From the NCBI RefSeq assembly GCF_001677475.2, contig NZ_CP015229.1: 64,000 nt of DNA; one strand, 5' to 3'. The translations under genes were made by a program, and so were the position numbers. This document shows, one piece after another, positions 15,540 to 26,613 of this stretch. The notes below the pieces were generated by a model that saw nothing but the letters and a program-made list of their open reading frames with translations, made no database searches and had not been told where the DNA came from. This stretch comes from Escherichia coli. Its GTDB lineage: Bacteria; Pseudomonadota; Gammaproteobacteria; Enterobacterales; Enterobacteriaceae. Every line of letters begins with the position of its first letter. Position 1 is the stretch's first letter.

Positions 15540-15616
15540 CGGCACGTAGCGCAGCCTGGTAGCGCACCGTCATGGGGTGTCGGGGGTCGGAGGTTCAAAT
15601 CCTCTCGTGCCGACCA
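15540..15616 (+). tRNA. proL: tRNA-Pro (proL-type, GGG anticodon)
   Basis: 77 nt CGGCACGTAGCGCAGCCTGGTAGCGCACCGTCATGGGGTGTCGGGGGTCGGAGGTTCAAATCCTCTCGTGCCGACCA, cloverleaf with CCA end. Confidence 0.95.
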
Positions 15617-15618
15617 AA
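15602..15618. repeat. attL core (tRNA 3' end copy of direct repeat)
   Basis: Exact 17-bp match to 26597-26613. Confidence 0.7.
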
Positions 15619-15738
15619 TCGCCCACCGGAAAGCACCGAATAAGACAGGGATAACCCGCTAATCACTTGATTGGCGGGTTTTTTTATGGTTTTTAGTCAC
15701 CGAACATCACCGGATTTATAAGCTATCAGCCGGATTTT

Positions 15739-15792
15739 TTAGTTATACGTTTAGTTATACGGGCTGGCGTATAACTAAAGCCGTATAACTAA
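15739..15792. repeat. candidate integrase arm-type sites, four copies of TTAGTTATACG (two direct, two inverted)
   Basis: 15739-15749, 15751-15761, 15768-15778 (inverted), 15782-15792 (inverted), just upstream of int. Confidence 0.5.
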
Positions 15793-15824
15793 AACCCTGT
15801 TTTTTCGTGTGGAATCATAGACAT

Positions 15825-17066
15825 ATGGCGAGAAAAACACCCCCATTAACCACAGTGCAGATCAAAGCAGCCAGACCAGCGCAAAAGGAGTACACCCTAC
15901 AGGACGGCGGTGGGCTTTTTCTCCTGGTAAAACCGTCCGGATCAAAACTCTGGCGATTTTCCTACTACCGACCATCGGACAAAAAAAGAATATTGCTGAG
16001 TTTTGGATCGCTTGAAGATGTTTCCCTGGCTGATGCCAGAAAACGCCGTAGCGAGTACAGGACGTTAATCAGTGCCGGAACTGACCCGCAGGACCATGAG
16101 AAGAAAAAACGAGAGGCAGAGGCCCGAAGACAAGGGAACACGTTCGAAAATGTGGCGGCGGCATGGTACCAGGTGAAAATCAGCCAGAATCTGGCCCCCA
16201 ACACGATTAAAGACATCTGGCGTTCGCTGGATAAATATGTATTCCCGTTCATCGGCAACACGCCAATAGATACCCTCACCGCTCGCCGCTTTGTTGAGAT
16301 ACTCACACCCATTAAAGCACGCGGCAACCTGGAAACTCTGAAACGCGTTTTACAACGCATCAATGAAGTGATGGATTTTGCTGCCAACAGTGGGCTGATT
16401 GACATCAACACCGCCGCGAACGTCCGCAAGGCATTCCCTTCCCCCACTAAAAAGCATATGCCAACCATCCGACCGGAACAGCTACCGCAGCTAATGCACG
16501 ATTTATCGGTCGCCAGCATAGAACGGCAAACCAGATTGCTAATCGAGTGGCAACTGCTGACCGTAGCACGCCCAGCCGAAGCAGCCGCCGCACGCTGGGA
16601 AGAAATAGATCTCGATGCCGAAACATGGACGATTCCAGCCGGACGCATGAAGATGCGCCGTGACCATGTGATCCCTCTTTGCGGTCAGGCGATAGCTGTA
16701 CTGGAAACAATGAAGCCAATCAGCGCACACAGGGAACATGTTTTTCCCAGCCTTAAAAATCCAATGCTGCCAATGAGCAGCCAGACCGCTAACGCTGCAT
16801 TGCGCCGGATGGGATACGCTGGTGTGCTGGTGTCTCACGGATTACGCGCCATATTCAGTACAGCAGCGAACGAGGAAGGATTCGAGCCGGACGTAATCGA
16901 GGCCGCACTCGCACACGTGGACACGAACGAGGTAAGGCGAGCATATAACCGAAGTAACTACCTGGAAAAGCGCGTGGTGCTTATGCGCTGGTGGGGGGAA
17001 TTTGTAGAGGCCGCAGCTACCGGAGTGACCATAGCCAGTGGTAAAAGGGGTATCCGTGCCGTGTAA
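15825..17066 (+). CDS. int: P4-type tyrosine integrase
   Basis: N-terminus MARKTPPLTTVQIKAARP..., C-terminal catalytic region (HGLRAIFSTAANE...AALAHV...RAYNRSNY); adjacent to tRNA att site. ORF track starts at GTG 15807. Confidence 0.9.
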   Translation: MARKTPPLTTVQIKAARPAQKEYTLQDGGGLFLLVKPSGSKLWRFSYYRPSDKKRILLSFGSLEDVSLADARKRRSEYRTLISAGTDPQDHEKKKREAEARRQGNTFENVAAAWYQVKISQNLAPNTIKDIWRSLDKYVFPFIGNTPIDTLTARRFVEILTPIKARGNLETLKRVLQRINEVMDFAANSGLIDINTAANVRKAFPSPTKKHMPTIRPEQLPQLMHDLSVASIERQTRLLIEWQLLTVARPAEAAAARWEEIDLDAETWTIPAGRMKMRRDHVIPLCGQAIAVLETMKPISAHREHVFPSLKNPMLPMSSQTANAALRRMGYAGVLVSHGLRAIFSTAANEEGFEPDVIEAALAHVDTNEVRRAYNRSNYLEKRVVLMRWWGEFVEAAATGVTIASGKRGIRAV

Positions 17067-17091
17067 CTGTACAAAAAACCAGTAAAAGCGA

Positions 17092-17119
17092 TGCAAACCA
17101 TGCCAAACCATCGTATAAT
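17092..17119 (+). promoter_or_regulatory. candidate sigma70 promoter (TGCAAA-16 bp-TATAAT)
   Basis: Perfect -10 TATAAT at 17114-17119, -35-like TGCAAA at 17092-17097. Confidence 0.4.
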
Positions 17120-17164
17120 TGCCACAAATTTAACGACAAGGCCGGAGTATATGAAAATTCTATT

Positions 17165-17395
17165 ATGCAAAATACCACCGCCTACGGCGAAGGGCTGCAA
17201 CTGGCGTTAATGGCAAATCGTGAATTCTGGTCAACATACGATCCGGAAGACAAATCAACAGCCCCCACAAAACACGAGGTAGTCAGTTTTTTGCGCTCGC
17301 GTGGTGCATCGAAAAATCTGGCTGAAAGCATCGACAAGGTGCTGAGGCCCACCAGCCTTAAATGCGGTGGGCGACCTAAGAAGTGGAAACGGTAA
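17165..17395 (+). CDS. hypothetical 76-aa protein with basic C-terminal tail
   Basis: ORF between candidate promoter and terminator; no clear SD; an overlapping 19-codon uORF (17151-17210) has GGAG just upstream. Confidence 0.4.
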   Translation: MQNTTAYGEGLQLALMANREFWSTYDPEDKSTAPTKHEVVSFLRSRGASKNLAESIDKVLRPTSLKCGGRPKKWKR

Positions 17396-17400
17396 TCACA

Positions 17401-17431
17401 ATAGCGGCCCTTTGCGGTCGCTATTTTTTTG
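17401..17431 (+). terminator. rho-independent terminator
   Basis: ATAGCGGCC...GGTCGCTAT stem followed by T8. Confidence 0.6.
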
Positions 17432-17464
17432 CAGAAAGAAAAGCGTAATCAATGAGATAAAAAA

Positions 17465-24859: not shown

Positions 24860-24932
24860 CCGCCGCCCCGTAACGGGCCATAATTCCAGGAGGGACCCGA
24901 CGACACCAGGCTATCAGAGCGATGGGGGCACA

Positions 24933-25214
24933 ATGACAGAAGCCGAAATACTGCGATTAATCCGCCGCGTTACCGGAATCAGCCAGCAGGCTGACGAACA
25001 GGCCACGCAGCCGGACAGCGTGACCGCTGAAAATTATGTGCGTGTTGTTGCTGAGGTGATGCGCCGTGATGGTATTGAGCTTAACGGCGTGGATATGCGC
25101 AACATACGAACAAGAGTCCTTGAGTTGCTGGCATACCGTCGCCGGATACAGACGTACAGGGAAAAAGCCAAAATAACGTACCAGTGGAAGAAGCCGGAGC
25201 GGTTACGGCGGTAA
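24933..25214 (+). CDS. hypothetical 93-aa protein
   Basis: ORF with GGGGG-type SD; no family recognised. Confidence 0.4.
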   Translation: MTEAEILRLIRRVTGISQQADEQATQPDSVTAENYVRVVAEVMRRDGIELNGVDMRNIRTRVLELLAYRRRIQTYREKAKITYQWKKPERLRR

Positions 25215-25236
25215 CTTGCTGAACTTAAAGCATAAT

Positions 25237-25333
25237 GGAAATTTGCACTCTGGCCTAACCCGTTAATATTTCAGCAAAGTGCAAATTTGCGTTCTGTAGC
25301 TGGTGGCTGGCAGAATGTAAATTTACATTCTGG
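25237..25333. repeat. three dyad repeats, consensus TGYAAATTTRCAYTCTGG
   Basis: 25237-25253, 25279-25296, 25311-25333 (the last a 22-bp perfect palindrome CAGAATGTAAATTTACATTCTG); lies between convergent genes. Confidence 0.5.
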
Positions 25334-25337
25334 TGAT

Positions 25338-25637
25338 TTAATCATCTGATTTACCCAGCCCGTACCGGATTACCGTACAGTGAGCGCCATCGCTACCGAT
25401 ACGCACATCAAAGCGGGGTTCGCGCACTTTCACGCGGTACAGGATCCCATCATTTACCATAGCGTTTAACGTTCGTCGGGTTGCCTCTATGTGGTATCGC
25501 TGATATTCGGAACCATAGAGCAGCAATGTAACACCACGAACATCAAATGGTGGTTCTCCAGCCTCCACCCGCACCCAATCGCGATACTCAGGTTTGTAAA
25601 GTTCAAGAATCTGTTTTTTGTGCCTGGTCATTCTCAT
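25338..25637 (-). CDS. hypothetical 99-aa protein
   Basis: ATG with AAGGAA SD (MRMTRHKKQILELYKPEYRDW...); ORF track extends upstream to 25766. Confidence 0.5.
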   Translation of the reverse strand: MRMTRHKKQILELYKPEYRDWVRVEAGEPPFDVRGVTLLLYGSEYQRYHIEATRRTLNAMVNDGILYRVKVREPRFDVRIGSDGAHCTVIRYGLGKSDD

Positions 25638-25743
25638 GTGTGATTCCTTATTGTGGGACAGTACTGTCATACAATAAGCTATGAGGGAAATTATCAAAAG
25701 AACGGAAACCAACCATTCAGATTTAACAGGTATCAATGGGATT

Positions 25744-26052
25744 ATGCTTATGGTGCATGATGACAAAGCGGAAGAACTGGAAGCGAAAGGTTTATGGCGA
25801 CGGGCGGCTAATCGCTGGGGTGAGTTACTGAAACAGGCGGCAAGTGATGAAGCGCGTCAGTATGTAACGGAACGACGAACGGCATGCATCCGGAAGGCAA
25901 CCATAACCCGGGAACCGGAAAGAGACCTGATTTGCGCCATAAGAACCGCCGCCACAAAAACACTAACGGATATGGGGATCGACCTGAAAAAAGAAGATCC
26001 ACTGCGGGGCATTCAGCACGGACATACAAAGCAGGATAAACGCAGGAAGTAA
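25744..26052 (+). CDS. PerC-family-like transcriptional activator (tentative)
   Basis: MVHDDKAEELEAKGLWRRAANRWGELL... resembles the PerC/Pch N-terminal signature as recalled; start uncertain (25744 or 25750). Confidence 0.45.
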   Translation: MLMVHDDKAEELEAKGLWRRAANRWGELLKQAASDEARQYVTERRTACIRKATITREPERDLICAIRTAATKTLTDMGIDLKKEDPLRGIQHGHTKQDKRRK

Positions 26053-26163
26053 ATTTTTCCGTGTAACCAGGCAACCGACTATCTGAAAGATAGTCACCCC
26101 CTACCGGGATCACGCTAGTAACGCACAACAGAGTGACCCATAGCCACCCTGTTCAACCGTTCC

Positions 26164-26207
26164 GGCTGGCTGGCTGGCTGGCTGGCTGGCTGGCTGGCTG
26201 GCTGGCT
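26164..26207. repeat. (GGCT)11 tetranucleotide microsatellite
   Basis: Eleven perfect tandem GGCT units followed by GGG. Confidence 0.95.
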
Positions 26208-26596
26208 GGGCAGATTTTGCGCGGGTCTTATAGTCCCTCACAACAGAGTAAATAAAATTGACTTGGTTACAGAGTAACCAAACCGGAGATTTCCGGTTTG
26301 CTCAAAAAATGACAATGAGTTACGCCCCTAACCTAAGTAATCCTTACATTCACTGCATCATCACCATGATGGTGACGCAGCCCACCAACAACCATAACGA
26401 CTTCCGTTACGGTTGATGCTTTTACCCCATTGGGGGGGGACATCCACCAGCTTGATAACGGATAACAGGGAGTCATAACGGTTAAAATTGTATACTTTTG
26501 CAGCAAACATTTTTAGCTACACGTTAAGCTATACGATTATGGATTAAAATTTTTTGACTTCAATTAAATCAAATAGTTACACACACGTTTTGAATA

Positions 26597-26613
26597 CTCT
26601 CGTGCCGACCAAA
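26597..26613. repeat. attR core (direct repeat of tRNA 3' end)
   Basis: CTCTCGTGCCGACCAAA identical to 15602-15618. Confidence 0.7.

Follow-up and report, generated by a model that had tools for sequence, protein, structure and literature searches.

EcCICFT073, a phage-inducible chromosomal island (PICI) of Escherichia coli, is mobilised by the phages lambda and phi80 (PMC6092414, PMC6739421). In tested relatives of the island described below, a helper phage switches on alpA, which is needed for the cycle, the integrase and its att sites integrate and excise the element, a segment made up of pri and ori is capable of autonomous replication, and mobilisation by lambda and phi80 proceeds via cos (PMC6092414, PMC6739421, PMC11773190). 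Here we describe an island in a 64,000-nucleotide stretch of an E. coli chromosome (contig NZ_CP015229.1 of assembly GCF_001677475.2; this whole stretch is hereafter the window, and all positions are counted from its first letter). The island lies at the tRNA gene proL, a site for which EcCIATCC25922, EcCIED1a.1, EcCI11128, EcCI11368.1, SdCI1012 and SbCISb227 have been listed as 'yejM-luxR' or 'yejM-aidA' PICIs (PMC6092414 Table S1). It is very probably a Gram-negative PICI of the EcCICFT073/EcCIATCC25922 family, of the subtype that encodes its own small terminase (TerS), integrated by its own tyrosine integrase at the 3′ end of proL and following a life cycle that we propose to depend on a lambdoid helper.

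The boundaries of the island are set by a 17-bp sequence, CTCTCGTGCCGACCAAA, which has exactly two exact copies in the window, at 15602-15618 (attL core, +) and 26597-26613 (attR core, +); the chance expectation is 0.01 matches even when up to two mismatches are allowed. The left copy is the 3′ end of the tRNA-Pro(GGG) gene proL (15540-15616, +; ARAGORN, Rfam and K-12 annotation), the integration target, whose 3′ end is rebuilt by the island. The gene order in K-12 MG1655 is yejL, yejM (lapC), proL, yejO, narP, and in the alignment K-12 runs from the left flank through proL directly into what follows the second copy; the intervening 10,995 bp have no counterpart at the proL-yejO junction. Given that K-12 is unbroken across this junction, we conclude that the 10,995 bp are an insertion and that the 17-bp repeat is the crossover core. 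A preliminary description of the window had placed a 17-bp direct repeat around some 11 kb between yejM/proL and yejO, which are neighbours in K-12, and had proposed an alignment to that junction as a check; both coordinates and the position are upheld by the alignment, and the interval is an insertion rather than a conserved piece of chromosome. A terminator-like hairpin with a T-run, borne by the island, stands just past the rebuilt proL (15653-15680, +), while the native proL terminator, followed by yejO, lies beyond attR.

To assign the element to a family, its content was compared with the published definitions of PICIs (PMC6092414; SatelliteFinder, PMC10085698). The island has all five core components that SatelliteFinder uses for PICIs and none of the forbidden ones (PMC10085698). 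The integrase stands at the left end with the att sites, AlpA follows downstream of int with rightward transcription, a replicase module precedes an iteron origin, a capsid gene and TerS accompany a cos site, and the size of 10,995 bp falls within the range of ~8-15 kb. Moreover, the order of genes is that of EcCICFT073, gene for gene, from alpA to the last gene. Protein identities between the two islands are 100% for YlcI, 97% for Icd, 89% for orf81, 84% for orf93, 75% for SSB and 68% for the DUF4222 protein, and 54% for both the capsid and the decoration protein, 49% for PerC and 48% for Pri. EcCICFT073 likewise has homologues of lambda gpE and gpD, a PerC gene, an iteron origin downstream of pri, and a lambda-type cosQ and cosN upstream of a packaging-specificity gene. 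The two differ at the left end, where the EcCICFT073 integrase is only 24% identical to that of the island and serves another site (ycfD-phoQ). This synteny, together with the published PICI site, agrees with the earlier proposal of a phage satellite at proL that uses a lambdoid cos helper.

The island encodes a major capsid protein, a decoration protein and a TerS, as would be expected of a capsid-forming PICI (cf-PICI), which builds small capsids of its own and steals only tails. However, no large terminase, portal, head-tail adaptor, connector or prohead protease was found in the 11 kb, and the capsid gene belongs to the lambda gpE type known from classical Gram-negative PICIs; we therefore regard a cf-PICI as highly improbable. 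When all island open reading frames (ORFs) were compared with family libraries, there was likewise no match to a tail, lysis, portal, protease, connector or large-terminase gene.

The packaging-specificity slot is the second module in which the island differs from EcCICFT073. A lambda-type cosQ-cosN segment lies at 24140-24218 (+), with cosQ, GGGTCCTTTCCGG, at 24142-24154 and the 12-nt cohesive end, GGGCGGCGACCT, at 24172-24183. GGGCGGCGACCT is the exact cohesive-end sequence of lambda, and the 79 bp over cosQ and cosN share 88.6% identity with lambdoid phages. A second cos like that of EcCICFT073 was not found, the window having a single exact cosN. It should be noted that a second cosN-like site lies inside pri in EcCICFT073 (L004 11384) and in EcCIATCC25922 (L008 17056), with none in the replicase allele of the island; the site in pri is presumably one of the two published EcCICFT073 cos sites.

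Next to cosN, at 24214-24289 (no strand assigned), lies a candidate for an island-specific cosB. It comprises GGTTGGTG(GTGGTGG) at 24215, an A+T-rich spacer and, in the opposite orientation, two tandem ACACCAAC at 24273-24288, and thus consists of one inverted and two direct copies of a single motif. It stands in place of the lambda segment with R3, I1, R2 and R1 and is unlike lambda R3, R2 and R1. The same arrangement is repeated in four other aligned TerS-type PICIs (L001, L005, L006, L008); in two of the four, a few bases of the first tandem copy differ.

The gene that follows (24317-24859, +) encodes a TerS of 180 aa that belongs to the Nu1 family (Pfam, E=2e-22) and occupies the slot of rppA in EcCICFT073. 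It is 37-38% identical to lambda Nu1, although the identity is unevenly spread: the part that matches the DNA-binding domain of Nu1 shows 18-32%, compared with 44-50% for the C-terminal half. In lambda, it is the C-terminal half of Nu1 that contacts gpA. The simplest reading is that the island TerS likely binds the island cosB repeats and brings the gpA of the helper to the shared cosN. Such a route would differ from that of the Rpp proteins while reaching the same end. EcCICFT073 has RppA, which hijacks the helper TerS, and redirection of the Rpp type involves an Rpp of ~144-153 aa that heterodimerises with the helper TerS; what the island encodes instead is a full-length protein of the Nu1 family. 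The possibility that the 180-aa TerS is a disguised Rpp was considered and ruled out on this ground and on its 13% identity to RppA. Among PDB chains, which would include the RppC structure if deposited, TerS has no sequence match. Hence both the lambda-type cos site and the Nu1-like small terminase of the preliminary description stand, as does its choice of a lambdoid cos helper, given the lambda-type cosQ and cosN and the occurrence of the same packaging cassette inside a lambdoid prophage (see below).

Upstream of cos, three genes complete this cassette. The first encodes a major capsid protein (MCP) homologue of 346 aa (22329-23369, +), 42% identical to lambda gpE and 54% to c1499 of EcCICFT073; its match to PDB entry 3BQW (E=1e-121) is to the sequence of the EcCICFT073 capsid homologue itself. 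The second encodes a head decoration protein homologue of 113 aa (23379-23720, +) that matches phage 21 SHP and lambda gpD, so that the E and D homologues reported earlier are both in place. The third, directly upstream of cos (23732-24115, +), encodes HTH127, a winged helix-turn-helix protein of 127 aa and the second of the AlpA family on this island (Pfam Phage_AlpA), whereas typical E. coli PICIs are said to encode only one AlpA (PMC11773190). HTH127 accompanies this capsid allele in every fetched relative that has the allele. As a possible relative of Rpp, HTH127 was rejected, since its sole PDB match is an AlpA-family regulator.

Ratios of nonsynonymous to synonymous substitution (dN/dS) were obtained by comparison with four to six relatives. 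They are 0.03-0.07 for MCP and 0.10 for the decoration gene. For HTH127 one divergent comparison gives 0.06, and a near-identical pair with only three differences gives 0.14. The ratios for TerS are 0.12-0.19 in comparisons with dS above 0.4, and higher in near-identical pairs, where they rest on just four or five differences. Judged by these ratios, the capsid, decoration and HTH127 genes are working genes under purifying selection.

One reading of this conservation is that the capsid-decoration-AlpA-like-TerS cassette forms a self-contained head-redirection module, in which the gpE and gpD homologues of the island would co-assemble with the portal, scaffold and protease of the helper into island-specific, possibly smaller, capsids, and HTH127 would regulate or help packaging at the neighbouring cos. 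If true, this would be a mode of capsid piracy undescribed so far for E. coli PICIs. The strong purifying selection on the cassette (dN/dS 0.03-0.10) is in its favour. The capsid and decoration deletions published for EcCICFT073 do not rule on it, because the cassette of the island is a different allele set from the c1499/c1500 deleted there. Nevertheless, we consider it quite unlikely. In our preferred reading of a TerS-type PICI, the capsid and decoration genes have no step in the proposed cycle, given that the deletions in EcCICFT073 were without effect. A literature search on what the capsid and decoration genes of PICIs do found nothing later than those negative knockouts of 2018.

Homologues of lambda E, D and Nu1 beside a lambda cos are also what would be left by a lambdoid prophage that has decayed to a few head and packaging genes. 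Several observations make such a remnant extremely unlikely. These proteins are just 37-42% identical to those of lambda, and the gene order is E-D here but D-E in lambda. The replicase is non-lambdoid and has its own origin. Hundreds of genomes, with at least five integration sites between them, share the size and layout, and phages offer next to no DNA match: a search of 50,697 phage records returned a single weak one, a primase of 78% identity. The matching record (LR881103.1, Escherichia phage vB_KppS-Ant, 16.5 kb, described as an 'induced prophage') could, at that size, be a packaged satellite that was deposited as a phage.

At the left end, the tyrosine integrase (15825-17066, +; 413 aa) is full length, with arm-binding, central and catalytic domains (Arm-DNA-bind_3, Phage_int_M and Phage_integrase), and shares 91% identity with its counterpart from another island at proL. 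Four exact arm-type repeats, TAGTTATACG, two direct and two inverted, lie upstream of int (15740-15791, no strand assigned), and three more, TAGCTACACG, AAGCTATACG and TAGTTACACA, adjoin attR (26514-26583, +). In Table S1 of PMC6092414, the 'att site core' given for PICIs of the yejM site, TTTGTAGTTATACGTTTGTAGTTATACGG, matches these arm-type repeats (15736-15762 and 26511-26537). On the evidence of the alignment and the repeats, the true crossover core at the yejM/proL site is the 17-bp proL 3′ end rather than TTTGTAGTTATACGTTTGTAGTTATACGG, and the sequence published as the att core behaves as an arm-type integrase site.

The P4-type architecture of this integrase, which had been recognised in the preliminary description, raises the question of a P4-like satellite with a P2-type helper. 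Integration at a tRNA end, an AlpA/Vis-like regulator, a size of ~11 kb and a match to the C-terminal part of the P4-family primase, although below the curated cut-off, would all fit such an element. However, searches with PHROG and NCBIfam found no homologues of sid, psu, delta or epsilon and no hit to the alpha primase, the cos site is of the lambda and not of the P2/P4 type, and the gene layout is that of EcCICFT073. The two families are also explicitly separated in PMC6092414. A P4-like satellite is therefore scarcely plausible, and the assignment to the PICIs is retained.

Between int and alpA lies a small ORF that is kept in relatives (17165-17395, +). It is followed, 66 bp upstream of alpA, by a 20-nt tandem repeat (AAAACAGTGGGTACCGTTTT x2; 17461-17500, +), which looks perfect and has internally palindromic units, possibly an operator or another regulator-binding site. 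alpA itself (17566-17772, +) encodes 68 aa with a Pfam Phage_AlpA match (E=5.5e-8), in line with the AlpA named earlier, and by analogy to EcCICFT073 and EcCIMP1 it is presumed to be the master activator of the island (PMC11773190). Only two island genes are on the minus strand, namely a YlcI/YnfO-family gene (18055-18231) and an accessory gene near the right end (25338-25637); the rest are rightward (+). The former is in its 59-aa form and is the protein shared at 100% with EcCICFT073. A gene for an Icd-like protein (18434-18640, +) opens a rightward operon of small genes and is followed by orf78, orf82 and a gene for a DUF4222 protein (together 18630-19413, +). Among the small ORFs, NCBIfam recognised only the Icd-like and YlcI/YnfO proteins, apart from a sub-cut-off ANR match on the PerC-like protein.

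The operon leads into the replicase gene ('pri-rep'; 19410-21215, +), which encodes 601 aa with D5_N, DUF5906 (a superfamily 3 (SF3) helicase P-loop) and Pox_D5 matches. The protein is 48% identical to EcCICFT073 Pri, and PHROG labels it 'DNA primase' (E=4e-190), while Pfam recovers the D5/SF3 helicase part only, with no primase catalytic domain. Directly downstream lies the origin (21227-21462, no strand assigned), in which ~11 copies of GGTGAACAGT in both orientations surround A+T-rich spacers. Thus, of the small-gene operon feeding a primase/helicase with an iteron origin that had been described, the operon, the helicase part and the iterons hold, whereas the primase domain is not borne out by Pfam. 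The origin is followed by orf81, a conserved gene for 81 aa (21503-21748, +), and by ssb (21745-22044, +), which is truncated to 99 aa instead of 136-140. Compared with the islands of Z1323CEC0010 and CFT073, ssb has an internal deletion of 56 bp that shifts the frame after residue 88 and removes the C-terminal part. The same 99-aa ssb is called in an identical public contig, and the deletion is therefore not a read error.

This lesion bears on whether the island is a decaying PICI of the same family, no longer mobilisable and now a fixed remnant. The ssb frameshift is also present in the public contig that matches 21.2 kb of the window, the integrase is identical on at least 24 contigs, and a deletion of 684 bp at the right end has removed an accessory gene found in the island of strain A19. 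On the other hand, int, alpA, the replicase, the iterons, cos, terS, the att cores and the arm sites are full length and match relatives, and the capsid, decoration, HTH127 and orf93 genes are likewise full length against their closest relatives. Both ssb and the deleted gene lie outside the core components of a PICI (PMC10085698), and the host has an SSB of its own. Neither lesion affects a core PICI function, although replication efficiency could still suffer. We therefore hold a decayed PICI to be unlikely, with the ssb lesion as the reason why it keeps a low level of probability. The integrase, att cores, arm-type repeats and cos had earlier been judged intact, which they are, whereas 'complete-looking' fits the island only in its core genes, not in ssb or the right-end accessory region.

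Several further points must be set against the view that the island is a mobilisable TerS-type PICI. It is from sequence that we infer both the binding of TerS to the island cosB and its contact with gpA, and a literature search found no experiment that concerns this island or any other E. coli PICI of the TerS type. The deletion of the capsid or decoration gene from EcCICFT073, published in 2018, left both transfer and interference unaffected. No helper prophage lies in the 64-kb window. Finally, the right-end accessory region lacks 684 bp of the A19 island, including an accessory gene, and this loss and the ssb frameshift may reduce the efficiency of mobilisation. Having weighed these points, we still favour a mobilisable PICI of the TerS subtype, at the strength given at the outset.

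If so, a cycle modelled on the tested relatives can be proposed. The entry of a lambdoid cos helper into lytic growth would turn on alpA, and AlpA would then drive the rightward operon. Int would excise the island across the 17-bp core, and the replicase would fire the iteron origin to yield concatemers. TerS, with its divergent DNA-binding half and better-conserved C-terminal half, would bind the island cosB and recruit the gpA of the helper to cosN, so that island DNA rather than helper DNA would be packaged into the heads and tails of the helper. Four units of 10,995 bp amount to 43,980 bp, about 91% of the lambda genome, from which we infer packaging as a tetramer. This length agrees with the published finding that EcCICFT073 DNA in particles is phage-sized.

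The distribution of the island and its parts was surveyed in 5,426 complete E. coli genomes. The proL-yejO junction is empty in 4,825 of them. The integrase type occurs in 440, and the capsid-decoration-HTH-cos-TerS cassette, at a coverage of at least 80%, in 263. The exact combination seen here is in none of these genomes, the best match reaching 86% coverage at 94.7% identity. At least 24 public contigs, in turn, carry the identical integrase sequence; one NCBI contig agrees with the window over 21.2 kb, with 0 mismatches and a single gap, and the identical island is present in draft assemblies. The cassette is also found with other integrases and replicases, namely at a tRNA-Ile site with a DUF927 replicase, at cspD-clpS and in gene E of a lambdoid prophage. 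TerS, for its part, occurs without its own cassette in O157:H7, where an element at the phoQ site pairs it with the c1499-type capsid set. The island is thus a new mosaic member of a known PICI family. In a separate observation on the flank, positions 9000-15620 are at most 98.7% identical to any of the 5,426 complete genomes and identical to drafts such as GCA_016118665.1; the source lineage seems to have no close relative (above 98.7% over the flank) among complete RefSeq genomes.

The remaining features lie at the right end and in the flanks. orf93, a conserved 93-aa gene (24933-25214, +), is 84% identical to the last gene of EcCICFT073. The minus-strand accessory gene at 25338-25637, predicted at 99 aa in the identical public contig, has no family match. 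It is followed by a gene for a PerC-family regulator (25750-26052, +), an accessory gene typical of E. coli PICIs (PMC6092414 Table S1). A PADLOC search of the accessory genes for defence systems returned nothing meaningful. A (GGCT)11.5 microsatellite (26164-26209, +) lies 112 bp downstream of the PerC-like gene. The number of copies is 11.5 here, 15 in the otherwise identical NCBI contig (L011 20340-20399) and 9 in the A19 island (L010 12887-12922), which looks like a slipped-strand hypervariable tract but may be an assembly error. In A19, a 103-aa gene, deleted in this island, lies 240 bp downstream of the tract. The remainder of the window is unremarkable E. coli chromosome; it extends from the yej genes to ato by way of ccm, nap, ompC/MicF and rcs. 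It should also be noted that yejO (26713-29304, - strand) encodes an intact autotransporter of 863 aa, while it is a pseudogene split by IS5 in K-12 and a truncated pseudogene in ATCC 25922.

As a discovery the island matters little, because the PICI family, its attachment site and its gene layout were published in 2018 and relatives are present in hundreds of sequenced E. coli. Its value is rather that of a clean example of the TerS subtype, with its own Nu1-like terminase and its own cosB beside a cosN identical to that of lambda, as opposed to the Rpp of EcCICFT073. It also adds evidence that selection maintains the capsid and decoration genes. A major capsid gene is present in 21 of 29 reference PICIs (PMC10111431).

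A satellite that combines the cos of its helper with a homologue of the helper's HK97-fold capsid protein has been described before, in SaPIbov5 and other cos-type Staphylococcus aureus pathogenicity islands (SaPIs; PMC5052747). SaPIbov5 is Gram-positive and unrelated in sequence, and its capsid homologue, Ccm, makes small capsids (PMC5052747), whereas the related E. coli capsid gene showed no role of this kind. Closer to our island are the PICIs embedded in their helpers, such as 11capE (PMC10111431). One such element, in GPEC79-13-647 (L014 2276-14432), splits gene E of a lambdoid prophage and has the same capsid-decoration-AlpA-like-cos-TerS cassette at 92% DNA identity. Around it, the prophage encodes a Nu1 that shares 99% identity with that of lambda and has a lambda-type cosB; the embedded PICI, in contrast, has a TerS only 35-38% identical to Nu1 and a divergent cosB. 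An abortive-infection family gene lies at the right end of the embedded element. This element targets a phage late gene, uses a different integrase and is regulated in cis by its helper, unlike the island described here, which lies in a chromosomal tRNA gene.

At the proL site itself, the nearest comparison is EcCIATCC25922. It lies next to tRNA-Pro, has an integrase of the same family (87.6% DNA identity over the gene) and a TerS 86% identical to that of the island, and is alike in arm-type motif, in its size of ~11 kb and in gene order. Its replicase allele encodes 584 aa, compared with 601 aa here, and its capsid set is of the c1499/c1500 type and comes with an unrelated 137-aa gene. Relative to EcCIATCC25922, our island has a truncated ssb and an additional PerC module at its right end, and it carries the second capsid type together with HTH127.

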